This document shows, piece by piece, positions 2,872-64,000 of a stretch of 64,000 nucleotides of DNA. The notes under the pieces are model-generated. The model was not told the origin of the DNA. It did no database searches and was given only the letters and a program-made list of their open reading frames with translations. The position numbers and the translations under genes are program-made. The DNA is from Smithella sp. (GTDB lineage Bacteria > Desulfobacterota > Syntrophia > Syntrophales > Smithellaceae), in contig DATKPG010000007.1 in NCBI GenBank assembly GCA_035524255.1, positions 3,270 through 67,269 of the forward strand. Direction: 5' to 3'. Within the stretch, counting starts at the first letter, position 1, and each line of letters starts with the position of its first letter.

Positions 2872-3364
2872 ATTGCTCTCCTCGTAAGAGTACAGATGAT
2901 ATTTTTTACATTTAAGTTAATTTTCTCCGGGGCATTTCATTCCTTATCATGTTAACAAAAAATTTAATTTTCCCTGTTGTTGCTTACATATTTAAGGAAC
3001 AAATCCCTGGATGTTGTGGCCACGGAGTGTTTCTTTATAATCTTTATCTAAATTTGCGAGTGCAGATGGTATTTGCAATATTGTTTATGATTACCAGATA
3101 CGATAATGATTTTCAACCTTTTTTTACGTTGTCTTTCTTTCAGACAAATTCCTGCCCGGCATTTAAATAACGGTCATGCCGGCCGGGGCATTAAAATTTT
3201 CATGTTTGTCATGCTCAACGAACAGGTAAATATAAACGAAAGAATTCACGGATACGGCGTCCCGGGGGCATTTTACGTTTTTTGCCTGCGATAAGCAATA
3301 AAACATTCCGGAAGCGCCATTAAAAATGATGTTAAAAATATGAAGGCCTGCGCGATTAGCGCGA

Positions 3365-49423: not shown

Positions 49424-50805
49424 TGATGATTAAAAAAGTCCGCAAAACTATCGAAAAATATCAACTGCTTGCGCGGGGCGAGCGGGTTGTTGTGGCTCTC
49501 TCCGGCGGGCCCGATTCCACGGCGCTTCTGGCGGCTCTGGCCTCCATGGCTGAAGAACTGGATATTAACCTGATCGCCGCGCATTTCAATCATGGATTGC
49601 GGGGCGCCGAATCCGATGAGGATGAAAAATTCTCCCGCGATTTGGCCGAGGGTCTGGGGCTGATTTTCTGCACCGCGAAAATGGAGCGGAATAACCATAA
49701 AAAGGGAATTTCGCCCGAAGATTTTTACCGGCGGGAAAGATATGCTTTCTTAAATCAAGTTGCCGCTGATTATCAGGCGCAAAAAATCGCGCTGGGGCAT
49801 AATCTGCAGGATCAGGCCGAAACGGTTCTGCTCAATCTTTTACGCGGCAGCGGCCTCGAGGGCCTCAAAGGTATTTTACCCAAACGAGACGGCAATATTA
49901 TCCGGCCGCTGATTGAAACCTCCCGGCGGGAGATCATTGGTTACCTGAATAAAGCCGGTATTTCATATCGCGAGGATAGTTCCAACAAAAGCAAAATGTA
50001 CCTGCGGAATCAAATCAGGACTGACCTGATTCCGTATCTGAAAGAAAAGTATAATCCCAAAATCGAAGAAAATCTGGCCCAAATGGCGGAAATACTGCGC
50101 GCGGAAGATGAATTCATCAGGCAGCACACGGTCCAGGCCCTGCAATCGTCGTTTATTCAAAAACAGCCAAATCGTGTTTTATTAAATATAGCGTATATCA
50201 ATAAATTGCCTTCTGCCGTAAGACTTCGGTTATTTAAAACAATTTTAGAGGATTTCAGTCCCGAAAAAAACGGATTCTCCTATATCCATATAAAATCACT
50301 GGATAATTTATCGAAAATGAACGGATCGGGCAAAAGGCTAATCTTGCCTCTGGGGATTGAAATAAGGCGCGAATATGAGAATTTAATTATCGAGCGCAAA
50401 AAAGCCCGGATAAAACAGACTCTGTATGAATATCCCATGACTATTCCGGGATCGGTTCATGTAAAAGAGAGAAATGTTACCCTCCGCGCGGAACTCACGC
50501 CAAGAAAAGGTATTGATTTAAAAAGCAAAAATGAAGTTTATCTGGATTTGGATAAAATTCAGCAGCCTGTAGTGGTACGCAACAGAAGGGATGGGGATAG
50601 ATTTCAGCCCCTCGGCATGGCGGGACGGCAAAAAATTAAAGATTTTTTCATCGACCGCAAAATTCCCCAAGGCAAACGTAATGATATCATGCTGCTTGCG
50701 GATCGTGTTTCTGTAATATGGATTGAAAATATGCATTTAAACGACCGGGTCAAAATAACCAAAGATACAAAAAACGTTCTGAAACTGGAAATTACGAACC
50801 CGTAA
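49423..50805 (+). CDS. tilS: tRNA(Ile)-lysidine synthetase
   Basis: 460 aa with PP-loop 'VVVALSGGPDSTALL', 'HFNHGLRG' and the C-terminal TilS substrate-binding region 'VRNRRDGDRFQPLGM..RQKIKDFFID'. Confidence 0.92.
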   Translation: MMIKKVRKTIEKYQLLARGERVVVALSGGPDSTALLAALASMAEELDINLIAAHFNHGLRGAESDEDEKFSRDLAEGLGLIFCTAKMERNNHKKGISPEDFYRRERYAFLNQVAADYQAQKIALGHNLQDQAETVLLNLLRGSGLEGLKGILPKRDGNIIRPLIETSRREIIGYLNKAGISYREDSSNKSKMYLRNQIRTDLIPYLKEKYNPKIEENLAQMAEILRAEDEFIRQHTVQALQSSFIQKQPNRVLLNIAYINKLPSAVRLRLFKTILEDFSPEKNGFSYIHIKSLDNLSKMNGSGKRLILPLGIEIRREYENLIIERKKARIKQTLYEYPMTIPGSVHVKERNVTLRAELTPRKGIDLKSKNEVYLDLDKIQQPVVVRNRRDGDRFQPLGMAGRQKIKDFFIDRKIPQGKRNDIMLLADRVSVIWIENMHLNDRVKITKDTKNVLKLEITNP

Positions 50806-50946
50806 ATACCGGCAAATTTGCATTGTTTTATACGTAATATTATTATAAAGGCTATATAAATTAGCTTTTTACTGATGACATTATCCGCTTCATGGTTATC
50901 TTATAGAAGCAAAACGACTTATAAGGATACATAAAGGAGAAAAACA

Positions 50947-52767
50947 TTGAATCAGTTCCAGAAAAACATAGCTCTTGTTCTCACGGTCGCGCTAGTGGGC
51001 CTGCTTGTCTGGCAACTCTATAACCAGCCCAAAGCCGGGACAAAAGAAATAATTTACAGCGATATGACGTCCTATCTGGATAAAGGCGAAATCAGTGAAG
51101 TAACCATTCAGGGCGACAGCATTACCGGAAAATTCACAAACGGCAATCTTTTTAAGACATTCGCTCCCAAAGACGATAAACTGGTGGCGCAGTTCAGGGA
51201 AAAAGGCGTCAAGATTACGGCCAAACCCAACGATGATTCGCCCTGGATTACGGTTTTGATTTCGTGGGTTCCGATGATTCTTTTGATAGGCGTCTGGATA
51301 TTTTTTATGCGCCAGATGCAATCCGGCGGAGGCAAAGCCATGGCCTTCGGCAAGAGCAGGGCGCGTTTGATGACCGATAAAACCAAGCGGGTCACGTTTG
51401 CCGACGTAGCCGGCATCGATGAGGCCAAGGCCGAGCTCGAAGAGATTATCGATTTTTTAAGGGATCCTAAAAAATACACAAAACTCGGCGGCAGAATTCC
51501 CAAGGGACTTCTGCTTGTCGGCCCTCCCGGCACGGGTAAAACACTATTGGCGCGCGCCATAGCCGGTGAGGCGGAGGTACCGTTTCTCAGCATCAGCGGA
51601 TCGGATTTTGTGGAAATGTTTGTCGGCGTCGGAGCGTCCCGCGTGCGGGATCTTTTCAGCCAGGCCAAAAAGAACGCCCCCTGCATCGTTTTTATCGACG
51701 AAATCGACGCGGTGGGACGTCACCGCGGCGCGGGTTTAGGCGGCGGTCATGATGAAAGGGAACAAACGCTCAATCAATTGCTTGTGGAGATGGACGGATT
51801 CGAATCCAACGAAGGCGTGATTTTAATTTCCGCGACCAACCGCCCCGATGTTCTTGATCCGGCGCTTCTGCGTCCGGGCCGGTTTGACAGGCAGGTTATC
51901 GTGCCGCTGCCCGATGTAAAAGGCAGGGAAAAAATATTTGAAGTTCACGCGCGCAAAGCGCCGATTGACACGGACGTTGATTTTTCGGTTCTGGCGCGGG
52001 GAACGCCCGGCACTTCCGGAGCCGATATCGAAAATCTGATTAACGAAGCCGTGCTCAACGCGGCCCGCGCCAATAAAGAAAAAGTCAACATGAGCGATTT
52101 CGAGTTCGCCAAAGACAAGATTTTAATGGGCACGGAAAGAAAAAGCATGGTGATCAGCGATGAAGAAAAACGCAACACCTCTTATCATGAAACAGGCCAC
52201 GCTCTGGTCGCGCGCCTGATGCCGGGAACCGATCCGATTCACAAGGTGACCATTATTCCCCGCGGCAGGGCGCTGGGCTTAACCCAGCAGCTGCCGATTG
52301 ACGAAAAGCATACCTATCCCCGCGAGTATCTGGAAAACAACATCGCTATCTTGCTGGGCGGACGCGCCGCCGAAGATATCGTTTTGCATGATTTCACCAC
52401 CGGCGCGGGCAATGATATCGAACGGGCGACCAATCTGGCCCGGAAGATGGTCTGTGAGTGGGGCATGAGCGAAGTCATGGGACCGCTGAGTTACGGCAAA
52501 AAAGAAGAGCAGATTTTCCTGGGACGTGAATTTGCCACGCACAAGGATTACAGTGAAGAAACGGCAAAAAAAATTGACGAGGAAGTTGTTTCCATCGTCA
52601 AGACAAACTATGAAAAAGCGAAAAAGCTCATCAATGACCACATAGAAATCCTGCATAAGATTGCCGGGGAACTTCTCGAAAAGGAAGTTTTAAACGGAGT
52701 GGAAATAGACGCCATCATCGGCGATGCTTTGCCCGAATTTAACCGGGCTGAAAAAGCATTGGCTTAA
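50947..52767 (+). CDS. ftsH: ATP-dependent zinc metalloprotease FtsH
   Basis: 606 aa with two TMs, '[11 protein letters not shown]', 'IVFIDEIDA', SRH '[19 protein letters not shown]' and 'HETGHAL'. TTG start after AGGAG. Confidence 0.95.
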
Positions 52768-52826
52768 CGACTTCATTTTTCTTCTTAAAAGATATTTATT
52801 TTCACTTTTTATATCGGTGTTGCCGC

Positions 52827-54035
52827 GTGAGAACCATCAAAATTAATAATCCGGAAGACGCTTCGGCGATCTTCAGAAAAATAGGCGTTGATCCTTACGG
52901 GATTGACGCTATGGCGCGAAAAACTATTAACGTTAACCTGCTGCTGGAGAAACAACCCTGCAAAATTGCGAACATCATCAAGCAGGAAATGCTCTCCATC
53001 GGCGGGGACGCCGCCGTCGCCCGCGGCAGCGTTGCCTGCAGTGTGCCCGCGAGCGATATTTTAATTATGGGCACGGTAAAGCAGATCATCGCCCTGGCTA
53101 AAAAAATCGAGAAACAGCCCTTCGGCCTCAACCTTATCGCCCGTGAAATCTTTGATACATTAAAAAACATACACATGAGCGTTTATGTCTGGAGGACATC
53201 CCGCCGCAAAATAATTCTGGGCGGAAAAACAGCGGTGATGGGCATTTTAAATGTGACTCCCGATTCGTTTTCCGACAGCGGCCAATATTTTCCGCCCCAA
53301 AAGGCCATTGATCATGGACTTCGCATGGCGGACGAGGGGGCGGATATGATTGACATCGGCGGCGAATCCACGCGGCCGGGTTCGCGCTCTGTCCCGGCTA
53401 AGACTGAATTAAAAAGAGTGCTTCCCGTCATTGAAGGTCTGGCTAAAAAAATAAAGATACCCCTGTCGGTTGATACCAAAAAAGCGGAAGTCGCGAGGCT
53501 TGCCGTTGATTTCGGCGCGGAAATCATCAACGACATAAGCGCCCTGAAAGGCGACAAAAATATGGCCGAAGCTGTAAAGAGCACGCGCGCGGCGGTCATC
53601 CTTATGCATATGCGGGGCAAACCCAAAAACATGCAAAAGGGCGATCTGGCGTATGATGATCTGATGGGGGAAATTTCGGATTGCTTAAAACAGGGCTGTG
53701 AAAAAGCTCTGAAGGCCGGTATAGAAAAAGACCGCATCGCCATCGATCCCGGAATCGGATTTGGAAAAACGCCCGAGGACAATTATAAAATTATCAGGGA
53801 TCTTTGTGAATTAAAGGCGCTGGGGATGCCGATACTGATCGGAACATCCCGGAAATCTTTTATCGGAAAGATAACCGGCGGCGAACCGGATGAAAGAATG
53901 GAAGGCACTGCGGCGACGGTGGCCGCGGCCATCATGAACGGCTGCCATATTATCCGGGTGCATGACGTCGCGGCCATGAAAAAAGTTGCCGCCGTCACGG
54001 ACGCCATTGTTCACGCGGCGCGGGTGAAATCATGA
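52827..54035 (+). CDS. folP: Dihydropteroate synthase with ~125-aa N-terminal extension
   Basis: 402 aa with 'VMGILNVTPDSFSDSG', 'DIGGESTRPG', 'IINDISA' and 'GTSRKSFIG'. Residues 1-125 lie upstream of the pterin-binding barrel. Confidence 0.9.
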   Translation: MRTIKINNPEDASAIFRKIGVDPYGIDAMARKTINVNLLLEKQPCKIANIIKQEMLSIGGDAAVARGSVACSVPASDILIMGTVKQIIALAKKIEKQPFGLNLIAREIFDTLKNIHMSVYVWRTSRRKIILGGKTAVMGILNVTPDSFSDSGQYFPPQKAIDHGLRMADEGADMIDIGGESTRPGSRSVPAKTELKRVLPVIEGLAKKIKIPLSVDTKKAEVARLAVDFGAEIINDISALKGDKNMAEAVKSTRAAVILMHMRGKPKNMQKGDLAYDDLMGEISDCLKQGCEKALKAGIEKDRIAIDPGIGFGKTPEDNYKIIRDLCELKALGMPILIGTSRKSFIGKITGGEPDERMEGTAATVAAAIMNGCHIIRVHDVAAMKKVAAVTDAIVHAARVKS

Positions 54036-54412
54036 TTTACGGCATTGGAATAGACCTTGTTGAAAACAGCCGTCTGGATAAAATCATCGCCAAATGGGGT
54101 CCGAAATTTTTAGACAGAATTTATTCCGAAGGGGAAATTCAGTACTGCGGGAGGCACGCGCAAGCATCACCGCATTACGGAGCCAGATTCGCGGCCAAGG
54201 AATCTTTTTTGAAAGCCCTGGGTCTTGGCCTGGGCATGGGCGTTCATTTAAATGATATTGAAGTTGTGCGTGATGAAAACGGCAAGCCCGCTTTGTCGCT
54301 TTACGGGGAAGCGAAAGCTCAGATTAAAAAAAGAAAGATTACAAAAATTCATTTGAGTTTGACGCATACGAAAAAATACGCTACAGCTTTGGTTGTGCTG
54401 GAGACAAAATAA
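54032..54412 (+). CDS. acpS: Holo-[acyl-carrier-protein] synthase
   Basis: 126 aa with 'MIYGIGIDLVE', 'FAAKESFLKALG' and 'SLTHT'. Start overlaps the folP stop. Confidence 0.92.
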   Translation: MIYGIGIDLVENSRLDKIIAKWGPKFLDRIYSEGEIQYCGRHAQASPHYGARFAAKESFLKALGLGLGMGVHLNDIEVVRDENGKPALSLYGEAKAQIKKRKITKIHLSLTHTKKYATALVVLETK

Positions 54413-54439
54413 ATACTAAGCCCATAGCCGCTTTGTTAG

Positions 54440-54928
54440 ATGACTAAGAAAAAGACAAAGATTGAAATTATAACCGATAGCGCCGCAAAGACGTCAGATA
54501 CAGCCTGCCTGATCGGCGGGCGGTTGAAAAAAGGCGATATCCTGGCGTTATCGGGGGAACTTGGTTCCGGCAAGACCTGCTTTACCGGGGGGCTCGCTCG
54601 CGGCCTGGGAGTGGATGAAAAATACCGGATTACGAGCCCGACGTTTACCCTGATTAATGAATATCCGGCAAGGTGTAAGCTTTATCACTTCGATGTCTAC
54701 CGGCTGAAAGACTATTCCGAATTCGAAGATCTGGGCTACGAGGAATATTTTGGGGGCAGCGGCGTTGCCGTCATCGAATGGGCGGAAAAAATCGCCAGGG
54801 TTTTGCCGCCGGACGCTTTATTTATAAATTTTGAATATCTGGATGAAAATAAAAGAAGAATCATCATTCAAGGACCGGAAAAAAGGTTACGGGAAGTAAC
54901 AGAAGATATAAAAATGGAGGTTGTTTAA
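54440..54928 (+). CDS. tsaE: tRNA t6A biosynthesis ATPase TsaE
   Basis: 162 aa with 'LSGELGSGKTCFTGGLARGLG', 'SPTFTLINEY' and 'YHFDVYRL'. Confidence 0.9.
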   Translation: MTKKKTKIEIITDSAAKTSDTACLIGGRLKKGDILALSGELGSGKTCFTGGLARGLGVDEKYRITSPTFTLINEYPARCKLYHFDVYRLKDYSEFEDLGYEEYFGGSGVAVIEWAEKIARVLPPDALFINFEYLDENKRRIIIQGPEKRLREVTEDIKMEVV

Positions 54929-54929
54929 G

Positions 54930-56150
54930 ATGGCTTTAATTGTTCAAAAGTTCGGTGGAACATCGGTCGCGGATATCGACAAGATAAAGAACGTGGCCCA
55001 GAAGGTAATCAATGTTAAAAAAGCCGGCAATAAGGTGGTGGTGGTTCTGTCGGCCATGGCGGGGGAGACCGACCGGCTCATTGACATGGCGCACAAGGCC
55101 GCCGACACGCCCAATGAAAGAGAATACGATTCCCTGATTTCAACGGGCGAGCAGGTGACGATCACGCTTCTTTCGATTGTCTTGAATTCCATGGGTCACG
55201 CGGCAAAATCGTTTTTGGGATTTCAGGTTAAGGTATTAACGGATAAATCGCACAAAAAGGCGAGAATCTCGCTGATCGATACGGATGTCATCAAGAAGGA
55301 ACTCAAAAAAGGAACCATTATCATCGTGGCCGGTTTTCAGGGCGTTGACGAACACAACAATATTACGACGCTGGGGCGCGGCGGTTCCGATACAAGCGCG
55401 GTGGCGCTGGCCGCGGCATTAAAGGCGGATCAATGCGACATCTTTACGGACGTGGACGGCGTTTACACCACCGATCCCAATGTCTGCAACAAGGCGCGGC
55501 GGCTGGATAAAATATCCTACGATGAAATGCTGGAAATGGCCATGACAGGGGCCAAGGTACTGCATCCGCGTTCGGTGGAAATGGCTAAAAAATATAATGT
55601 GCGCGTTTATGTTAAATCAACATTTTCTGATAAAGGAGGAACTCTTGTGACCAAAGAAGATAAAGATATGGAGAGGGAAATAATTTCAGGCGTAACTTAT
55701 GACCGCGATCAGGCTAAAGTAACGGTCGTCTGCGTTCCGGACAAGCCGGGCGTGGCCGCCGATATATTTTCGCCTTTGTCGGATAAAAATATTTTCGTCG
55801 ATATGATTATTCAAAATTCGAGCCTGCAGGGACATACCGATCTTACGTTTACCGTATCCAAAAAAGATCTGAAGGAAGCGCAAAAGATAGTTGAAGGCAC
55901 GGCCAAAAAAATCGGAGCCAAAAAAGTCGAAATCGACGATCAGGTCGCCAAGATTTCCGTCATCGGCGTGGGCATGGCCAGCCATTCGGGCGTGGCGGCA
56001 AAGATGTTCAAGACACTGGCGAAAGAGGGTGTGAACATCATGATGATCAGCACATCGGAAATTAAAATATCCTGCGTCATAGAGCGAAAGTATATGGAGC
56101 TTGCGGTATCGGTGCTTCATGAGGCTTTCAATCTGGCGAAGAAAAAATAG
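54930..56150 (+). CDS. lysC: Aspartate kinase (monofunctional, two ACT domains)
   Basis: 'ALIVQKFGGTSV', 'VVVLSAMAGETDRL', 'GRGGSDTSAVALAA' and a C-terminal ACT pair. ATG 54930 sits 9 nt after GGAGG; the listed TTG 54921 is less likely. Confidence 0.93.
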   Translation: MALIVQKFGGTSVADIDKIKNVAQKVINVKKAGNKVVVVLSAMAGETDRLIDMAHKAADTPNEREYDSLISTGEQVTITLLSIVLNSMGHAAKSFLGFQVKVLTDKSHKKARISLIDTDVIKKELKKGTIIIVAGFQGVDEHNNITTLGRGGSDTSAVALAAALKADQCDIFTDVDGVYTTDPNVCNKARRLDKISYDEMLEMAMTGAKVLHPRSVEMAKKYNVRVYVKSTFSDKGGTLVTKEDKDMEREIISGVTYDRDQAKVTVVCVPDKPGVAADIFSPLSDKNIFVDMIIQNSSLQGHTDLTFTVSKKDLKEAQKIVEGTAKKIGAKKVEIDDQVAKISVIGVGMASHSGVAAKMFKTLAKEGVNIMMISTSEIKISCVIERKYMELAVSVLHEAFNLAKKK

Positions 56151-56154
56151 CTTG

Positions 56155-56712
56155 ATGACCATATCCGAAAATAAACTAAGGGGACTGATCGCCGTTTGTT
56201 TGATACTAGCGATCATCCCCTTTATTATTTTCGGTTATCGAACGTTGCACAAATACAAAATCCCCCCTTTGGCCGATCAGTGCGACGGCTGCCTCGCGAT
56301 AGAAGTTTTTAAGGGCGATCAAAACACCGGAGTATATTTTGCCCCGCCGGGAACCACCGCAAACGGGTTATTGAAATCGGCAGGTATCGGAGGGCCTATC
56401 AATACCGACTTCCCGCTTATGACGGGCATGAAATTAATTTTGAATTCCGCTTCGGGTGATAAGGATATTGTCGTCGCGGAGATGCCCGCGGCTGATAGAT
56501 TATCCCTCGGATTGCCTATTGATATTAATCGGGCGACTGAAGACGATTTGCTTTTGATAAAAGGGGTTGGTCAGGCAACCGCTCAAAACATTCTGGATTT
56601 CCGCAAAAAAATAAACCGCTTTAAAGATATCAGGCAATTGATGGAAATCAAGGGAATCAAAGAAAAGAAATTGGCGGAGCTACAGAAATATTTGTACGTG
56701 GAGAAAAAATAG
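56155..56712 (+). CDS. comEA: ComEA-like helix-hairpin-helix DNA-binding membrane protein
   Basis: N-terminal TM 'LIAVCLILAIIPFIIF' and C-terminal HhH 'INRATEDDLLLIKGVGQATAQNILDFRKK..F..I.QLMEIKGIKEKK'. ATG 56155 is preferred over the listed 56101, which overlaps lysC. Confidence 0.85.
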   Translation: MTISENKLRGLIAVCLILAIIPFIIFGYRTLHKYKIPPLADQCDGCLAIEVFKGDQNTGVYFAPPGTTANGLLKSAGIGGPINTDFPLMTGMKLILNSASGDKDIVVAEMPAADRLSLGLPIDINRATEDDLLLIKGVGQATAQNILDFRKKINRFKDIRQLMEIKGIKEKKLAELQKYLYVEKK

Positions 56713-56713
56713 C

Positions 56714-56835
56714 ACCGCTCCCGCATCAAAGCGCTATTTTTGTTGGCGTCGTCGTCGGTCTCCTCAACGTATAACTAATACGCCTCGTCGCCTCCTCCTA
56801 GCCGCCTCAATATCATCTTTGATGCAGAAGCGGTA
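56714..56835. repeat. Long-range 18-bp inverted repeat enclosing an ~86-nt pyrimidine-rich core
   Basis: ACCGCTCCCGCATCAAAG (56714-56731) versus CTTTGATGCAGAAGCGGT (56818-56835), 16/18 complementary. The interior has direct repeats CGTCGTCGGTCTCCTC / CGCCTCGTCGCCTCCTC around the small palindrome CGTAT-AACTA-ATACG. It is followed by TATATTATTTTT. Confidence 0.5.
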
Positions 56836-56902
56836 TATTATTTTTATCAAGGATTTGTTGGCCCGATTATCATCTCATATTTCATATCAATATTTACTTT
56901 AG

Positions 56903-57115
56903 CTAATCCCTCGAAAGAGGGATATATAATGTCTTAATATCTATAATCATTTCTCTTGCAATATTTTCAAAAAAGGTTTTAATAATTTCGTCCCACATTA
57001 TGCGGAGGGTGTCGCTGACACCTTTGGTTCCGCATGTTTCATGAAAATATAAATTTGTAATATTAATGAACACTGATGAATGATATTTCAAGACCTCATC
57101 CCAATTACACATCAT
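56903..57115 (-). CDS. Small hypothetical protein in the AT-rich island (doubtful)
   Basis: 70-aa ORF divergent from the KAP NTPase gene, with AT-rich codon usage like its neighbour. No recognisable motif. Confidence 0.25.
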   Translation of the reverse strand: MMCNWDEVLKYHSSVFINITNLYFHETCGTKGVSDTLRIMWDEIIKTFFENIAREMIIDIKTLYIPLSRD

Positions 57116-57189
57116 TATTGATGAATACTTCGTCTTCGAAATATCTCAAATTATTTGTGCATAACTTATATGAATATTCTTAAATAATT

Positions 57190-59844
57190 ATGATGAATGC
57201 TTTTTTTAAAAAAGAATTATTAACGTCAAAGAAGTACGTGCTGAAAAATTGGCGGATACTTTTTCTTTCAGTAGCAATAGGTCTATTTTTATTCTGGATA
57301 CTTTCTGTGGTTGAACAGACGATCGAAGCGAAAACATTTAATTTCACAAATTATCTACCAAATATAAATTATTTTTTGATCATGATATGGTTATTACTAA
57401 TTACGATTTTCAATATAATATCTAATCTTTTTGTCCGTTATCGAAATTCCTATTTCTTAAATCAACCTGATTTTCTGCTTATTGACGCATTATTAATCAT
57501 TACAATCACAATTCTCTCTCTTTGCTATGTTTCTCATACTCTTCCCAGTAGGGCATCAATATATTTTTGGCGTCCCATGATCTCTATTTGTGTATTTATT
57601 TTTTTTACGTATATCTCAGCAACATTTCCTCTCATTAAAAAAGAGCTAAATAAATATTGTGCTCACGAAAATGATACATTTCCTGAACAAATTAAACTTT
57701 TTTCTGATGAACCGATAAACGACGAAATGGATGATTTAATCGGACGACGAAACTTTGCTAGTACTTTAAAGGAGCATATCTATGATCTTTCCATAGAAGA
57801 ATCATTTGTTATGGCATTATATGGTAGATGGGGTGAGGGTAAAACTTCTATATTAAATCTGCTAAAAAAAGAAATGAGGGAAGAGCCACATTTGTTAATT
57901 TATGAGTTCGATCCATGGTATTTCGGAGACAATGAAGCTTTAACAGCAAATTTTTATTATGGGCTAAACGACTTATTGGAGGAAAAATATTTTCTCTCGA
58001 AGAAAATTAAGAATGCGCTGACCTTTTACCCAGAGGTACTCTTGAAAGGGTTTGCTATTCGTTTTCATAAATCAGTAACAGATGAGCGGCCATTAGAAAT
58101 CAAGAAAGATATTGAACAATTCATTGCATCTATCGATAAAAAAGTTTTGGTTGTTATTGATGACATTGATCGTTTGCAACGAGAACAGATATTAGCTGTA
58201 TTTCAGTTAATAAAATTAACAAGTAAAATTAAAAATATGATTTTTCTTTTAAGCTTTGACCCAGACAAAGTTGCAGCAGCCATAAAATGTACACAAGAAA
58301 TGCGTGATTCGCACGACTATATTGAAAAGATTGTGCAACTACCAATAAATATTCCCATGACTGATCAAAGTATAATAGACAAATTTATATATTATTCTTA
58401 TCCAGAAACTGGTCATATATCAGAAATTGATAAACTATTTGATAGATGAAAAATTGATAAAAACAGAATAAAAGATTTCGATGAACAATTTGGTCCACTC
58501 TATCAATCAGAATTGAGACAAATATTTTCTACATTTAGGGCAGCAAAACGTTATCTAAATAGCATATATTTTAGATTGCCACCTATATTAGAAGAAGTTT
58601 ATCTTTTTGATTTTTTTATAGTAGAAATATTTCAAACTTTCTTTCCCGAAATTTATGGAGATATGAAAAAAGCACCTTGGTATTATGTATCAAAATGGTC
58701 CTTTGAGACCCTTTTAAGTTCACCATTGCCTCATGATGCCAAACAAAAATATCAAGCAATTAAAGAACATATTGAGGGACTAACTAAAACTAATTCCTTC
58801 AGAAACCTTATTATTTCACTCTTAGGATGTATTTATCCAGAAGTAGAGAAGGCTTTTTCTACCAGTGGATATGGTAGTGATCATGAATCATCGGCAAGAG
58901 ATTATAGGATCAAGCATAGAATCGCGCATGGGGATTGTTTCCTTAAATACTTTATGCTCGGTGTCCGCAAAGGCGTTATATCCGACTCTGAATTTGATAC
59001 CATGATAAAACTTTGGAAGGATGCGGAATCTACAGAAGATGAAATAAGAAAATCTCTAATCATGAAATATCAGAAAGAATTCAAATTACTCGAAATACTT
59101 AAACGTCTAAAAATATATTCAGATTTTCTTGATGCGAAATTAGTTTTACCGTTAATTAAAACACTTTATAAGAATTGTGACAATTTTCGCCGCGAAGGTG
59201 ATTTATGGGATACTGAACTTGATCAAGCTGAAATGCTGATTATGATTTTAATAGAGAACAATAAGGGGATAGCGGATAATAAAATAAATGATATTCTTCA
59301 CGAAGTTGTTAATAATGTAGTACGTTTTGATCTTGCTTCCAAAATAGTTTTATATTCCAATAGGGTGAGAAATAATTCTTTTTATAGAATAAGAAATAAC
59401 GTGAATATTGACAGTTTAAGAAATAGTCTTGCTGATAGATTGAATAAATATTTTATAGAAGGGGAAAGAGACATTTTTGATGAATATAAGCAAGCGAGGG
59501 AATTTGGTTTTATTCTTTATCAGTGGGCTACACGATGGGAGGATGAAAATAAAAATTATAAAGAAGAAGTAACAGATTATCTAATAAAGATATTTAAAAA
59601 GAAAAGTAATAAAATTGGATTTTATTTACTTCATTTTATGAAAAATAGAATGCATACTTATGATATTGATAGTTTTGATTATAGCGATTTTATTAAAGCT
59701 TATAATGCAGATAAGTTTGCACAGTTTCTAGATACTTTAGAAGATAAAGAAGCAGCATATTCTACAATAAACGAAAAAGAAGCTATTGATTTGTTTTTGA
59801 AGGCACATGCTGAAGCTTCTAAAAATTTACCAATTTCTTCCTAA
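57190..59844 (+). pseudogene. KAP-family (Kidins220/ARMS-PifA) P-loop NTPase with N-terminal TM helices, interrupted by a single in-frame TGA
   Basis: ORFs 57190-58449 and 58513-59844 share one reading frame. The only interruption is TGA at 58447-58449 (..KLFDR*KIDKNRIKDF..). Walker A 'GRWGEGKTS' (from 57823), Walker B 'VLVVIDDIDRL', the KAP hallmark 'FRAAKRYLNSIYF' after the stop, and ~4 N-terminal TM helices. Confidence 0.75.
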
Positions 59845-59929
59845 TAGAACGAAAAAAAGATTTAGTTAAAAGATTTAGAATTCTGGGGATAGTTTACTTA
59901 ATTAATCATAAGAATGTGAATTTTTAAAT

Positions 59930-60108
59930 CCGGCTATTCGGTCGATTGAAGGCCTCCCAAGGCAAGCCTTGGGAGAGACTTCGATTCTCGGGGAAAGTAA
60001 TAGTTTATTAAACGCTTGCTTACCCCTGTGCAGGCTGCGGTGGGTGCACTCGCTGCCGAATTCAAAAAGACTCGACCTAACTTGGCAATGACAGTGGGGC
60101 AGGGTTGG
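59930..60108. repeat. REP-like hairpin cluster
   Basis: Contains the perfect hairpin CTCCCAAGG-CAAG-CCTTGGGAG (59954-59975) within a longer imperfect palindrome, a GGCTGCG..CGCTGCC hairpin (~60032-60056) and a 'GGCAATGACA' motif shared with the 62.3-62.6 kb repeats. Confidence 0.6.
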
Positions 60109-60150
60109 CCCTCCCCCGTCGCTTTGCGACACCCCCTCCAAAGGGGGACA
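60109..60150 (+). repeat. 42-bp double-hairpin repeat, copy 1
   Basis: CCCTCCCCCGTCGCTTTGCGACACCCCCTCCAAAGGGGGACA, with hairpins GTCGC-TTT-GCGAC and CCCCCT-CCAA-AGGGGG. It lies 50 nt upstream of the 60201 ATG. Confidence 0.85.
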
Positions 60151-60200
60151 TTTGAGGAAATCCGGCGGCGGTATATTGGTTTTTCAGGAAAGGAGTTCAA

Positions 60201-61361
60201 ATGAATCCAGACGTGATCATCTCTGGCGCGGGTCCGGCGGGGCTGGCCTGTGCCATCTTCTGCGCCAGATCCGGACTCAGCGTTTTAGTTCTGGAGAAAG
60301 CAGACCGGCCGGGGCCTGAGCCCAGAGGCGAAACTGCTCGGCCGCACGAGATATTCGAGGATCTTCTCGGCAAAGACTTCATGAGCTCTATCAGCCTGCA
60401 CCGCACCTCCGCGCGGCGCTTTAACAGTCCGGGGGCCGAAAAAAGTTTCGAAATACAACGAAAGCATTCGTCCTACATTTTTGACTGGCATGTATTCATT
60501 GCCAGGCTCTTTGAAGAAGCCCTTAAGGCCGGCGTCAAATTCAGCATGGGCACCTCAGTCGCCGGGGCGATTATTGAAAACGGCATCTGCCGTGGCGTTG
60601 TGACCGCAAACGGCGAAGAGCTCATGGCGCATACCATTCTGGACTGCATGGGGCATACATCGGTGCTTGGCAAAAAAGCGGGAATCGATTATCGACGCCT
60701 CAACAATCCCATGATCAAGAGCCTGATCTCGAATTTCAAGGGTGAATACCGTGGAATGGAGTTTTTCTTCATTCCGGCGGGCTCGCTTCATTACGCGCCG
60801 TCTTTTCCGCCCTGCCTGACCTTCATTTTTCCGCGAAACGATGACAAGTGCGAAATAGGACTGATGATCATGAGCGGCCCGGCCGCCAAACTGGGACTGC
60901 GCCTGCCGGATAGCGCCGAACAGCTCAGGGTCTGGCACGAGCTCAAATCCGGCTATCCTCGTTTCAGCGGGCAGATCAAAGGTTCAAGGGTGGATTACGA
61001 AGGTCTGACCTGCCTGACCATGGCAGGGTTGCAGCCTGAGGGCGTAATCATTCCGGGTCTGATTCATCTGGGCGACGCGATCGGCTTTGTGGAAGCATCC
61101 GGAGGCTGCGGCCTGGCCTCGTCCCTCCAGAATGCCCGTTTCGCCGCCGATTTCGCGGCCTGCAACCGCGCACATGCTTGGAATGCCGAACGGCAGGACG
61201 CTTACAACCGGTCGTTTCGGGCCTCCCTCATCTACAGGCATATCCGGAAGGTTTACAGACTGGTGCTTCCGGCGCTTAATTTCATCTTCGCCCGCCTCAA
61301 AACTCCCGGACGCGTCAATCGCCACTGGTGGCTGGTGAAACTCTTCTACAAGCTGGGCTGA
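60201..61361 (+). CDS. FAD-dependent oxidoreductase (geranylgeranyl-reductase/UbiH-like class)
   Basis: 386 aa with 'DVIISGAGPAGLACAIFCARSGLSVLVLEK' (GxGxxG + acidic end) and 'GDAIGFVEASGGCG'. RBS AAAGGAG. Confidence 0.85.
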   Translation: MNPDVIISGAGPAGLACAIFCARSGLSVLVLEKADRPGPEPRGETARPHEIFEDLLGKDFMSSISLHRTSARRFNSPGAEKSFEIQRKHSSYIFDWHVFIARLFEEALKAGVKFSMGTSVAGAIIENGICRGVVTANGEELMAHTILDCMGHTSVLGKKAGIDYRRLNNPMIKSLISNFKGEYRGMEFFFIPAGSLHYAPSFPPCLTFIFPRNDDKCEIGLMIMSGPAAKLGLRLPDSAEQLRVWHELKSGYPRFSGQIKGSRVDYEGLTCLTMAGLQPEGVIIPGLIHLGDAIGFVEASGGCGLASSLQNARFAADFAACNRAHAWNAERQDAYNRSFRASLIYRHIRKVYRLVLPALNFIFARLKTPGRVNRHWWLVKLFYKLG

Positions 61362-61481
61362 CAGTCTGAAGTTCAACAATAAATTTACCGCGTCCTGAAA
61401 CTCGCACTTTTATAATTTCAATTTTATGCTAGAGTAAAACGCGCGGGGATAGAATTGCCCGCGTGATAAGGGGATTCCGAT

Positions 61482-62273
61482 ATGGCCGGACATACAACGG
61501 TGGGAACAGTGGCATGGGAGGCGCAGGGCGGACCGCCTCTTTCGCTTTATCAAAAAGCCGGGCTTCTGCTCGGCTACGGTTCTATCTTAACTGCAAATCT
61601 CATGACCCGGTTTTGGCTGCTTGTCAGTCGAAGATTTCCGCTTGAAGGCAAAGACGCCGCGAGGCATTTAGACCTGGAGGCGTGGGCTCCTCCCGATAGT
61701 CAGATAGCGCGTGATGCCGAAGAGTACGCGCGTGAATTTTCCAGCATCGCTATGGTGAATCACTGCTATCGGACGTACTATTTTGCCGCCCTGATGTATG
61801 AACAAAGCAAAACAAAAACGCGCATGGATAAAGAAGCCCTGTACGTCGCCTCAATCCTGCACGACGTGGGCCTCTTTCAATCGAAAAGACCGCAAGGCGA
61901 ACATTGTTTTACCGTGGGGAGCGCGAGCGTTGCCAGGCGGATCGCCAAATCCGCGGGTTGGGATAGCGCGCGCGTTGACGGCGTCGCGGAGGCGATAATG
62001 CTGAATCTGAATCCATGGGTTCCCCTGCAAAAATACGGGCCGGAGGCTCATTTTATGAGTGTCGGCGGACAACTGGAGGTCCTCGCGCAATACTGGAAGG
62101 TACCTCCGGATGATTCTCGGGAAATCCTCGCCCGGTATCCGCGCGCCGATTTTGCATCCGACAGCAGCCTCCATGTTAAAAATGAAGCCAGGCAAAACCC
62201 GGGAAGCCGCTTCGGCTGTCTGTGTCCGCTGTATACTTTTTTTGTGCCGAAGTTAGCCTTTAAAGTAACATGA
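61482..62273 (+). CDS. HD-domain metal-dependent phosphohydrolase-like protein
   Basis: 263 aa with 'NHCYRTYYF' (His) and 'ASILHDVGL' (HD dyad). RBS AAGGGGA 8 nt upstream. Confidence 0.7.
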   Translation: MAGHTTVGTVAWEAQGGPPLSLYQKAGLLLGYGSILTANLMTRFWLLVSRRFPLEGKDAARHLDLEAWAPPDSQIARDAEEYAREFSSIAMVNHCYRTYYFAALMYEQSKTKTRMDKEALYVASILHDVGLFQSKRPQGEHCFTVGSASVARRIAKSAGWDSARVDGVAEAIMLNLNPWVPLQKYGPEAHFMSVGGQLEVLAQYWKVPPDDSREILARYPRADFASDSSLHVKNEARQNPGSRFGCLCPLYTFFVPKLAFKVT

Positions 62274-62281
62274 GCGGCGCA

Positions 62282-62323
62282 CCCTCCCCCGTCGCTTCGC
62301 GACACCCCCTCCAAAGGGGGACA
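62282..62323 (+). repeat. 42-bp double-hairpin repeat, copy 2
   Basis: CCCTCCCCCGTCGCTTCGCGACACCCCCTCCAAAGGGGGACA. Starts 9 nt after the HD gene stop. It differs from copy 1 only in the first hairpin loop. Confidence 0.85.
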
Positions 62324-62372
62324 GGTAAGGAAGCTTCGCTTTTATCCTTGCAAAGAGGGACAGGTAAAGGAA

Positions 62373-62459
62373 GAGATTGCCACGGAACGCGAGGCGTTCC
62401 TCGCAATGACAAAAACGAGTAAGCTGTCATTGCGAGAAGCGAAGCGACGAAGCAATCCC
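62373..62459. repeat. Inverted pair of 'GATTGCCACG...CTCGCAATGACA' REP-like hairpin elements
   Basis: GAGATTGCCACGGAACGCGAGGCGTTCCTCGCAATGACA (62373-62411) and the inverted relative TGTCATTGCGAGAAGCGAAGCGACGAAGCAATCCC (62425-62459). Each is internally palindromic. Confidence 0.8.
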
Positions 62460-62466
62460 TACGATA

Positions 62467-62508
62467 CCCTCCCCTGTCGCTACGCGACACCCCCTCCAAA
62501 GGGGGACA
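62467..62508 (+). repeat. 42-bp double-hairpin repeat, copy 3
   Basis: CCCTCCCCTGTCGCTACGCGACACCCCCTCCAAAGGGGGACA. Confidence 0.85.
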
Positions 62509-62519
62509 TTTAAAAGTAG

Positions 62520-62627
62520 GGCGCGTTTCCCAAACGCGCCGCTTCGGATTGATCGGGGATCAATCCCCACATTATAAAAAATTAAAAGAGAGATTGCCAC
62601 GACTCGCAAGGCTCGCCTCGCAATAAC
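62520..62627. repeat. Further REP-like hairpins
   Basis: GGCGCGTTT-CCC-AAACGCGCC (62520-62540), GGATTGATC-GGG-GATCAATCC (62546-62566), and a third copy of the GAGAGATTGCCACG..CTCGCAATAACA element (62588-62627). Confidence 0.8.
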
Positions 62628-62714
62628 AAACCGTCGATAAGAGACGGTGCGCAATGAAAAATTCTTTTTCAGTTCGAGTCAATAAGACTCGGCCTGACAA
62701 AGATTTTAGTTGGT

Positions 62715-63098
62715 TTAAGGGGTTTGGGTTTCGCCGATACTTCTTTGTGATCCTGCTGCTATTTCCGAAATCCGGTGATTTTTGACAACACCCGATTCAT
62801 CAAAAACAATGCTCAATTGATTTATATACGTTGTTTTTCCTTTATATAAAGGAATTTTCATTTCACTTTCTTCAGTCCATTCATAGAAAAACATCTTTTC
62901 ATTATCAACAGTTTTTGTCGGAGCGCCAAACTCAAGCAGAACTTCCTGCTTCGTTGTCTTGCCATCAATGATACTGCGGGCAATTCTATCATCGCTGATT
63001 GATACACCGTGTTTAATTGTTGTGTATCCGCAGGCGGAAATCAGCAGCAATAAAGTGCATAAAACAAACAATGGATAAAGATGTCTTTTGGTATTCAT
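62715..63098 (-). CDS. Small lipoprotein, BamE/SmpA-OmlA-like
   Basis: MNTKRHLYPLFVLCTLLLLISAC|GY lipobox. 'IIDGKTTKQEVLLEFGAPTK' resembles the SmpA/OmlA motif. ATG 63098 is preferred over the listed 63137. Confidence 0.55.
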   Translation of the reverse strand: MNTKRHLYPLFVLCTLLLLISACGYTTIKHGVSISDDRIARSIIDGKTTKQEVLLEFGAPTKTVDNEKMFFYEWTEESEMKIPLYKGKTTYINQLSIVFDESGVVKNHRISEIAAGSQRSIGETQTP

Positions 63099-63304
63099 AA
63101 TTGTGCCTTTATGTGAGTGTGCAAAAATTTTGTACATATATAAACCTTTCCAATCTTTTCAGCAAGCCTCAAAGTCCAAAGGAGGACAATAGGGGGTTTT
63201 CAGAAATCATCATTTGCAAAATTATGCTTTTATGATAGATTATAGCCGGTAATGGTGATGTGAAGATTCAGGGTATTATGCCGCAATCTTAAGGGATGCA
63301 TTTT

Positions 63305-64000
63305 ATGCCGCGCGAAAAAATCGCCGCACTTGTTATCTTTTCCGCTTTTGTCTCTACCTTCCTTTGCGCACTGCCCGTCCGGGCCGATGTAGAAGTGTTC
63401 GAACGGGAATACACCTATCAGGCAACCAAAATCGACACCAAAGAATCCTCCAGGGCAATTGCTCTGGAGCAGGTCAAGAATCAACTCCTGGATGAATTGG
63501 GCATTTACGTGGAAAGCACGTCGGTTGTGGAAAATGATCAGATACAAAAAAATGAAATCAAGGTCCTGACCGCGGGAATTGTCAAGACGGATATTCTGGA
63601 TGAAAAGTGGGACGGCTCCAAGTACTGGATCAAAGTAAAGCTGGAAGCCGATCCGAACGACGTGGCAAAATCGATAGCCGAACTCCGCAAGAATCAGGAG
63701 ATGGTCAAGGAGCTCGAACAGACCAAAAAGGATAAAGAAAGCGCTCTTCAGGAAATCGATAATCTGAAAGCCCAGCTTGCCTCTTCGCAGGAGGATATCA
63801 CCGCGCAGAAACAGCAATATAACACCGCGGTCAATAATCTGGTTGCCGCCGATGTGAAGGGAAACGGCGACACGGCAATGATCTACGGCGATTATGATGC
63901 CGCCGCGGCTTCTTATACGCAGGTCGTTGAAATGCAGCCCACTAATGCAGTCGCCTTTTATAACCTGGGCATTGTCTATATCTATCTGGGAAACTACACC
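63305..64000 (+). CDS. Secreted coiled-coil/TPR protein, 3'-truncated by the window edge (absent from the supplied ORF track)
   Basis: My translation from ATG 63305 (AAGGGA 8 nt upstream, in-frame TAA at 63290) runs 232 codons to the window end without a stop. It reads MPREKIAALVIFSAFVSTFLCALPVRA|DVEVFEREYTY...KELEQTKKDKESALQEIDNLKAQLASSQEDI...AFYNLGIVYIYLGNY, i.e. signal peptide, coiled coil, then TPR start. Confidence 0.7.
   Translation, partial: MPREKIAALVIFSAFVSTFLCALPVRADVEVFEREYTYQATKIDTKESSRAIALEQVKNQLLDELGIYVESTSVVENDQIQKNEIKVLTAGIVKTDILDEKWDGSKYWIKVKLEADPNDVAKSIAELRKNQEMVKELEQTKKDKESALQEIDNLKAQLASSQEDITAQKQQYNTAVNNLVAADVKGNGDTAMIYGDYDAAAASYTQVVEMQPTNAVAFYNLGIVYIYLGNYT

Follow-up and report, generated by a model that had tools for sequence, protein, structure and literature searches.

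The window analysed here is a 64,000-nucleotide (nt) stretch of a Smithella sp. genome (GenBank assembly GCA_035524255.1, contig DATKPG010000007.1, positions 3,270 to 67,269). It contains an AT-rich island with an interrupted gene for a KAP-family P-loop nucleoside triphosphatase (NTPase); PifA of the F plasmid, to which the gene was likened in an original prediction made from the sequence alone, excludes phage T7. We conclude that the locus is probably a gene for a PifA-like membrane KAP NTPase, orphaned and circulating horizontally, in which a single-base nonsense mutation arose recently. The original prediction had left three options: fresh inactivation, expression by low-level read-through, or function as a split pair. 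Fresh inactivation is the best supported, by the intact homologues with Leu at the site, by a low ratio of nonsynonymous to synonymous substitution rates (dN/dS) after the stop, and by the absence of any shared split or restart signal.

A single in-frame TGA interrupts one long gene

The two open reading frames (ORFs) of the island, 57190-58449 (419 amino acids, aa) and 58513-59844 (443 aa), lie in a common frame, and the sole stop between them is the TGA at 58447-58449. The resulting 884-codon frame is broken by this one TGA, at codon 420, and otherwise contains no stops or frameshifts. The 21 codons 3′ of the TGA read KIDKNRIKDFDEQFGPLYQSE, a stretch that retains the family-invariant residues F430, D431, F434 and Y438. 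The predicted arrangement, namely one frame, one separating TGA and 21 normal codons after it, was thus borne out by the ORFs and their translation.

A search of 5.8 billion clustered proteins returned 42 matches, and 17 homologues were aligned. These are uninterrupted single proteins of 856-973 aa with 46-71% identity, and all are unsplit through the site, which settles the check on homologue intactness proposed with the original prediction. In the column of codon 420, Leu occurs in 13 of them, Met in 2 and Ile in 2. At this site, the sequence of the closest intact homologue is ...GAT CGA TTA AAA ATT..., as compared to ...GAT AGA TGA AAA ATT... in the window. A TTA-to-TGA change would therefore account for the stop in one step, the surrounding context otherwise matching.

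A profile search of 1.84 billion representatives yielded 6964 proteins at E ≤ 1e-30. Among the best 150 representatives, 117 were at least 700 aa long and most matched end to end. Approximately 20 of these 150 carry inserts of 40-120 aa at profile positions ~403-411, corresponding to ~58396-58422 of the window. This insert loop, just upstream of the TGA, marks the hinge at which the NTPase core passes into the helical C-terminal part; the stop falls 10-17 residues after this family-wide insertion hot spot.

We considered a genuine two-gene split KAP system and rejected it: the 17 homologues are unsplit, no break occurs at the same point, and no start preceded by a Shine-Dalgarno sequence follows the TGA. 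Orthologues split at the same point, the finding that would have spoken for such a system in the original prediction, did not turn up.

The TGA is shared by several assemblies

Exactly these 419-aa and 443-aa products are recorded for contigs of JGI, ENA, Logan and NCBI, with lengths of 125.3, 110.3, 3.2 and 139.9 kilobases (kb), respectively. The ENA (110 kb) and Logan (3.2 kb) contigs are 100% identical to the window and have the same TGA. The recurrence of the base in several assemblies indicates that it is not the artefact of a single assembler.

The TGA might nevertheless not be the true or dominant sequence, being either a consensus error of the metagenome assembly or an allele, of minority or majority frequency, that coexists with an intact one in a mixed Smithella population. 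We regard this as quite improbable. The genome is indeed a metagenome-assembled genome (MAG), and the reads behind the TGA-bearing assemblies are probably shared, given their 100% identity over 3-9 kb. By contrast, at least three assemblers or pipelines (139.9, 125.3, 110.3 and 3.2 kb) agree on the base, and no intact near-identical protein was found among the 5.8 billion clustered proteins, the best match being 71% identical. Moreover, consensus-level substitution errors are rare in short-read assemblies.

TGA is an ordinary stop codon in this genome

TGA terminates 385 of the 1414 long open frames of the genome (27%), in keeping with the predicted role of TGA as an ordinary stop. According to ARAGORN, the genome encodes 44 transfer RNAs (tRNAs), with no tRNA-Sec and no suppressor. 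Shuffled sequences fold more stably than the 74 nt that follow the UGA (z = +1.5), and these 74 nt contain no hairpin resembling a selenocysteine insertion sequence (SECIS). The gene uses TGG for each of its 12 Trp residues. We rejected recoding and a donor with TGA as a sense codon because TGA ends frames, neither such a tRNA nor such a fold was found, and Trp is always encoded by TGG.

That the TGA is meant to be read as a sense codon, specifying selenocysteine or, in a donor with a reassigned code, Trp or Gly, is accordingly very far from probable. The island is very AT-rich and one family member occurs in a Patescibacteria MAG; some Patescibacteria lineages reassign TGA. However, the column holds Leu, Met or Ile and never Trp, Gly or Cys, the 884 codons include just one TGA, and the nearest relatives are in Smithella-like DNA.

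The downstream part lacks restart signals but was long under selection

The in-frame candidates for a restart are TTG 58513, TTG 58576 and ATG 58663, none with a properly spaced Shine-Dalgarno sequence. GGAG precedes ATG 58663 only, at a spacing of just 2 nt. Translation that began at ATG 58663 would leave out the invariant residues 430-491; with TTG 58513 or any later codon as the start, at least the invariant residues 430-438 would be lost. The NCBI, JGI and ENA gene callers placed the start of the second part at three different positions, yielding products of 422, 393 and 443 aa, respectively. The first ATG (57190) also has no Shine-Dalgarno sequence, whereas the neighbouring native gene for a flavin adenine dinucleotide (FAD)-oxidoreductase has a clear one. 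We attribute this lack of a ribosome-binding site to loss of the usual coupling to an upstream restriction-modification (R-M) gene.

We calculated dN/dS by the method of Nei and Gojobori between the window gene and its closest intact relative (P0002), by segment. The values were 0.32 for the membrane part, 0.10 for the NTPase core and 0.18 for all codons after the stop; between two intact relatives, the post-stop segment gave 0.27. The low post-stop value indicates that purifying selection acted over almost the whole period since divergence (dS, the synonymous divergence, about 1.1). This leaves two readings, a recent break or a downstream part whose translation continues. At otherwise invariant columns, the window copy has 7 private changes, all conservative; the family range is 0-10. 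In a relative-rate test, 76 amino-acid changes fell on the window branch versus 30 on the sisters. This excess was present in both halves and was somewhat stronger after the stop (48 versus 18). The G+C content of third codon positions is 0.23 in the window copy versus 0.34 in the sisters, and the test is confounded because the window copy is more AT-biased.

These data bear on the possibility that the gene still functions, either by low-level read-through of the UGA, which would keep a costly or toxic effector in check, or through two parts that are made separately and then assemble. We consider this unlikely, though the least so of the alternatives to a recent nonsense mutation. The post-stop dN/dS and the retention of all conserved motifs are in its favour, as is the position of the stop in an inter-helix loop close behind the insertion hot spot. 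In E. coli work, UGA followed by A, as here, is a comparatively leaky context. On the other hand, the split is common to no orthologue, and other copies are broken elsewhere and by other means. The candidate starts fare no better: none after the TGA is preceded by a Shine-Dalgarno sequence, TTG 58513 and those beyond it lose invariant residues, and even the first ATG is without a ribosome-binding site. Finally, neither a read-through-promoting structure nor a suppressor tRNA was found.

The intact protein would be a membrane-anchored KAP NTPase

The 884-aa read-through product matched Pfam KAP_NTPase (PF07693) with an E-value of 7.9e-45 and a score of 153.8 bits (cut-off 20) over residues 186-460. 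A profile search of the genome gave 154.2 bits, with 1 TGA inside the match. The read-through protein spans profile positions 1-287 of 293 and the 5′ half alone stops at position 237, which places the stop within the Pfam-defined domain. The PADLOC PifA model (PDLC02361) aligned at profile positions 161-638 in one stretch that crosses the stop (9.8e-57, 191 bits) and, with the 3′ part alone, aligned with residues 26-363 of that part (2.6e-14). The QatA and PDC-S20 models matched weakly. No Pfam family was assigned to the C-terminal domain.

Four hydrophobic segments were found at residues 17-150 and none elsewhere. Together with the Pfam and PADLOC matches, these segments support the prediction of a membrane-anchored KAP P-loop NTPase. 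The diagnostic features of the KAP family are present, namely a profile score above the cut-off, a Walker A motif (GxxxxGK[ST]) and a Walker B motif (hhhhDD). The family was reportedly first described, by Aravind and colleagues in 2004, as having two or four transmembrane helices inserted in the P-loop domain. Here all the hydrophobic segments precede Walker A, the stretch from there to Walker B being free of them; 8 relatives likewise have N-terminal hydrophobic segments only.

We built an AlphaFold2 model on 25 family members (mean predicted local distance difference test score, pLDDT, 80.6). In the model, a bundle of helices at the N-terminus is followed by an alpha/beta NTPase core and then, from about residue 400 to the end, by helices only. 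Its best neighbours in the PDB were RdrA of the RADAR system, followed by ORC/Cdc6 and NLR-type ATPases, with template modelling (TM) scores of about 0.28. A PDB sequence search returned no match. The model suggests that the product resembles an oligomerising STAND/AAA+-like switch; because the TM-scores are low, we make no finer assignment.

Copies of the gene are frequently broken

Breaks were also found in other members of the family. At locus L176, the gene is truncated at its 5′ end, beside an insertion sequence (IS) integrase, at residues ~110-150. Two copies are frameshifted, at residue 315 (L146) and residue ~370 (L142), and a DDE_3 transposase is inserted at 340/341 in L198 and L199. 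Three further copies end at residues ~401 (L140), ~650 (L177) and ~750 (L169). None of these is split at codon 420; the breaks arose by frameshift, IS insertion or truncation elsewhere in the gene. Copies of the family decay often, as is typical of defence genes.

Two of these cases are of interest in themselves. L146 (Ga0209638_1019595, 1210-3247) is the closest relative of all (70-74% identity); it is frameshifted just before Walker B and has a SIR2 gene upstream. In L198 (1897-3029) and L199 (7972-9104), the gene within the KAP family gene encodes a 365-aa DDE_3-family transposase. An apparent clustering of breaks at residues 315-420 was not upheld: it vanished when all loci were scanned, as breaks occurred at ~110-150, ~650 and ~750 too. 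The clustering was in part ascertainment bias, since half-length fragments score best.

Relatives are often encoded beside restriction-modification genes

We examined 28 loci, 6 via precomputed Pfam tables and 22 via Pfam scans of the directly upstream gene on the same strand. The upstream neighbour was an R-M gene at 13 loci and a BrxL, SIR2 or Schlafen/AlbA_2 gene at 3; it belonged to no Pfam family at 8 loci and was an unrelated gene at the remaining 4. The R-M neighbours comprised type I hsdR/hsdS, M-S fusions, Eco57I/MmeI-like type IIG, type ISP, type III res and HinfI-like type II genes. The start of the relatives' gene overlaps the preceding gene by 14-17 nt (three loci) or trails it by 4-53 nt, which suggests translational coupling to the upstream gene. 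The association with R-M is guilt by association without a control set, yet it is consistent across R-M types. It also agrees with an old suggestion, quoted in a recent report, that prokaryotic KAP NTPases help to restrict foreign DNA (10.1101/2025.10.07.681051). The window copy is an orphan with no R-M partner. PADLOC identified no defence match in its eight neighbouring genes, so the gene stands alone rather than in a multi-gene system.

The three nearest relatives (70-74% identity) likewise occur in Smithella-like DNA, at loci different from that of the window: the first gene of one contig is 86% identical to one on contig C12 of the window's genome, and another contig has upstream of the KAP gene the same hairpin repeat that bounds the island (below). 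These occurrences indicate that the gene circulates in the accessory pool of the genus. The genes of the nearest relatives are also AT-rich, at 30-36% G+C. In a viral contig collection, we found one distant match only, and the family is not notably phage-borne there.

The contig of the closest intact homologue, L046, starts with the 3′ end of a MoxR-like gene (1-483; 86% identical to C12:107371-107853). A duplication of ~117 nt of this gene occurs on both sides (1-483 and 1916-2028) of a gene that combines Schlafen/AlbA_2, HATPase_c_4 and winged helix-turn-helix domains. This duplication looks like the insertion footprint of the Schlafen/AlbA_2 gene.

The island is foreign DNA at a variable site

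The host genome is a Smithella MAG of 3.28 megabases in 46 contigs, estimated to be 98.8% complete. G+C is 0.26-0.33 over 56750-59999 versus 0.45-0.59 on either side, and the segment 56850-59900 averages 30.0%. Among the 6303 3-kb windows of the genome (mean 0.450, standard deviation 0.038), the minimum, 30.7%, falls on the island. The AT-rich island that had been noted by eye is thus the 3-kb segment of lowest G+C in the whole genome. The AT-rich segment proper extends from 56846 to 59934 and has dispersed repeats of the host at both ends (Table 1).

Table 1. Features of the KAP NTPase island and its boundaries (window positions)
Feature	Position	Strand	Remarks
Left boundary: hairpin-type dispersed repeat of ~130 nt	56713..56845	.	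Directly after comEA stop (56712); AT-rich DNA begins after it
Leader, AT-rich, non-coding	56846..57189	+	No Shine-Dalgarno sequence before ATG 57190
70-aa ORF, probably no gene	56903..57115	-	No Pfam, PADLOC or NCBIfam matches
5′ part of KAP NTPase gene	57190..58446	+	Codons 1-419: four membrane helices, linker, P-loop core
Membrane-helix region	57238..57639	+	Codons 17-150
Pfam KAP_NTPase match	57745..58569	+	Residues 186-460 of read-through protein; stop inside match
Walker A, GRWGEGKTS (residues 212-220)	57823..57849	+	Intact; invariant among 25 aligned family members; from motif scan
Walker B, LVVIDDIDR (residues 320-328)	58147..58173	+	Intact; invariant among 25 aligned family members
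In-frame TGA, codon 420	58447..58449	+	Short loop between model helices 412-419 and 424-440
3′ part	58450..59844	+	Codons 421-884 and TAA: end of NTPase helical region, all-helical C-terminal domain
AT-rich tail 3′ of gene	59845..59934	.	
Right boundary: two GC-rich host dispersed repeat families (~145 nt; REP-like, ~60 nt)	59935..60160	.	

The hairpin element at the left boundary has 40 BLAST matches in its own genome, about half of which cover most of the element; it has no Rfam match. Orthologous copies occur at the same place behind comEA in the congeners G021 and G010, in the latter with an internal insert, and similarity to G021 stops at ~56845. The same repeat family occurs 85 nt upstream of the P0003 homologue, and a copy is also found upstream of the KAP homologue in L054. 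The GC-rich repeats of the right boundary occur at 59935-60160 and again at 62282-62517, flanking a gene pair for the FAD-oxidoreductase and an HD-domain protein. They have tens of copies in the genome, the ~60-nt family contains CCCCCTCCAAAGGGGG, and they give rise to spurious minus-strand ORFs that start MEGVS.SDGGG. The Logan contig of the island ends within the repeats on both sides, at 56794 on the left and 59966 on the right.

No orthologue of the KAP gene was found in the genomes of 35 congeneric species, the best match being a KAP protein of 33% identity. Synteny with congeners continues to the comEA stop (56712) and returns 10.9 kb further on, at a lutC-like gene beyond the window. 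The interval between comEA and lutC is 0.7 kb in G010 and 1.5 kb in G021. In the latter, the site (L038 2856-4276) encodes a DUF3800 protein and an XRE/HigA-like helix-turn-helix protein. As relatives carry different cargo there, the comEA-lutC site is a variable spot, or cargo hot spot, of the genus. The entire 10.9 kb (56713 to about 67620; L041) is missing from the nearest congeners. Beyond the KAP gene, this segment holds the FAD-oxidoreductase, the HD-domain protein, several lipoprotein-like genes, a tetratricopeptide repeat protein and a fumarylacetoacetase-family gene. The FAD-oxidoreductase has only relatives of 36-43% identity, in 2 of the 35 congeners.

There is no tRNA gene in 50000-64000, and we found no integrase and no convincing target duplication at the island. 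A 10-nt direct repeat, GCGGTATATT, at 56830 and 60168 was not accepted as a target duplication because such a repeat is expected by chance in 8 kb and its right copy lies beyond the host repeats. An Rfam scan gave nothing beyond one chance-level match. On the basis of its deviant composition, its absence from relatives and its insertion between conserved syntenic genes, we classify the island as a horizontally acquired islet. The proposal of horizontal acquisition is upheld by three findings: these are the most AT-rich 3 kb of the genome, they are absent from 35 congeners, and the site is variable.

The leader has a counterpart elsewhere in the same Smithella genome: contig C42:17600-17800 (L053 5600-5820), read in reverse orientation, shares ~78% identity with positions 56890-57100. 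The C42 stretch is intergenic, upstream of a TetR-family gene, and lies in another AT-rich patch. The leader showed no homology to the regions upstream of the closest homologues, similarity to which begins at 57170. The upstream 340 nt were also tried as a remnant of an R-M gene and rejected, as tblastx against four homologue loci matched nothing except the gene itself. The 70-aa ORF on the minus strand was likewise rejected as a partner: Pfam, PADLOC and NCBIfam gave no match to it, it is not kept open in the similar C42 copy, and the ORF in the corresponding position of L046 shows no similarity to it. Promoter and terminator scans gave counts no different from shuffled sequences. A second, weak KAP_NTPase match (20.3 bits, in a 573-aa frame) lies on contig C23:79960-80283 (L225), near another AT-rich patch.

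Comparison with known systems

Like PifA of the F plasmid, the intact protein would combine a KAP P-loop NTPase with a long helical C-terminal region that follows it, and would be a single-gene defence candidate on mobile DNA. According to BLASTP, the PifA of IncF plasmids (the gene after pifC) shares 22% identity with the window protein over 366 aa (E 5e-22), covering residues 173-489 of the latter. By contrast, F PifA begins at the NTPase, with its residue 14 aligned to residue 173 of the window protein, and lacks any strongly hydrophobic segment. Its Walker A and Walker B motifs are 146 aa apart, as compared to 108 aa here. The C-terminal halves of the two proteins gave no pairwise alignment, so the similarity is not full-length. 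The genetic contexts differ as well: pifC is directly upstream of pifA on IncF plasmids and no such gene occurs in the upstream 340 nt here, the usual partner in the window gene's family being an R-M gene. The description of the protein as PifA-like therefore stands with respect to the PADLOC match; the similarity to F PifA itself is confined to the NTPase, at 22% identity, and F PifA has no four-helix anchor.

Other KAP NTPases, from enterococci and the gut, have recently been shown to protect against phage (10.1101/2025.10.07.681051). Defence by EF_KAP requires Walker B and the C-terminal region, and enterococcal KAP defence does not operate by abortive infection (10.1101/2025.10.07.681051). 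EF_KAP resembles the window protein in architecture, being a membrane-anchored KAP NTPase with a large C-terminal region without known domains. EF_KAP and the KAP proteins of gut metagenomes are encoded near recombinases or defence genes. By contrast, EF_KAP has two modelled helices, one N-terminal and one within the NTPase domain, whereas the window protein has four at the N-terminus and none within the domain. Moreover, EF_KAP is intact and was tested, and the window copy is broken. The proposal of a candidate defence gene thus holds in part: the PADLOC PifA match and the R-M context of relatives support it, whereas action by abortive infection is unproven and the enterococcal KAP acts otherwise (10.1101/2025.10.07.681051).

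Three further systems share features with the protein. Tmn is a membrane-embedded P-loop NTPase and a single-gene anti-phage protein; in its reported mechanistic model, ATP turnover and ion export act on the membrane and stop the phage (10.64898/2026.03.01.708804). It differs in belonging to another NTPase family (YobI-like) and in having its helices after Walker A, and no sequence match to it was found here. RdrA (PDB 8hra, 8hr8 and 8fnu) was the best structural neighbour of the AlphaFold2 model (Foldseek E 2.5e-5, probability 1.0). RdrA is a ring-forming defence ATPase with a helical C-terminal part, but the TM-score is ~0.28-0.29 and the identity 12%; RdrA is also soluble and acts with a partner deaminase, RdrB, of which there is no counterpart here. 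QatA is likewise a KAP-type ATPase, matched at 1.3e-13 by PADLOC and at 49.8 bits by NCBIfam. However, the NCBIfam cut-off is 600 bits, and no qatBCD-like defence genes were found among the neighbours.

Discussion

The simplest history consistent with these data is that a defence gene from the mobile pool landed in a variable intergenic site of Smithella and then suffered a single nonsense substitution. The intact ancestor would have been an inner-membrane protein of ~885 aa, with four N-terminal transmembrane helices, a cytoplasmic KAP NTPase and a helical C-terminal domain of ~400 aa. In relatives, the gene comes after the final gene of an R-M operon, often overlapping it, and may be co-expressed with R-M genes as an extra anti-phage layer. 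NTP-dependent switching or oligomerisation of the NTPase could activate the C-terminal or the membrane part, a mechanism suggested by analogy with PifA, the enterococcal KAP proteins and Tmn. The window copy appears to have lost both its R-M partner and its ribosome-binding site, and its product would be a 419-aa membrane-anchored NTPase core. Lacking the end of the NTPase and the C-terminal domain, this core is most likely non-functional for defence, by analogy with EF_KAP, which needs its C-terminal region. We infer the defence function, its mechanism and its loss from these comparisons.

Several points weigh against a recent nonsense mutation in a defence gene. The low post-stop dN/dS is equally expected if the downstream part is still translated. 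The excess of 76 over 30 amino-acid changes fits relaxed constraint, but it also fits the stronger AT bias of the window copy. A single read set may underlie all four assemblies with the TGA, which may thus carry a consensus error or reflect a mixed population. The break is near a structurally tolerant hinge, and a two-piece protein could conceivably assemble. Lastly, phage defence is ascribed to the four-helix KAP family by analogy.

A broader and rather speculative proposal, which we think unlikely, is that four-helix KAP NTPases constitute a distinct, R-M-coupled second line of defence at the membrane, their translation being linked to the final gene of R-M operons of several types, much as PrrC is embedded in a type I R-M locus. 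Copies that lose their R-M partner would then be quickly disarmed since the uncoupled protein is costly, and the TGA would be a snapshot of this process, possibly with residual read-through.

With a recent nonsense mutation as the preferred explanation, the locus should be annotated as one pseudogene, flagged as foreign, and not as two hypothetical proteins. The family to which it belongs is large and mostly metagenomic: no fewer than 150 clusters, defined at 50% identity, match along the greater part of their length. To study cooperation with restriction, an intact relative and the R-M partner beside it would be a reasonable choice. The locus itself is of little consequence; the R-M-linked, N-terminally anchored KAP subfamily is a sensible target for defence assays.

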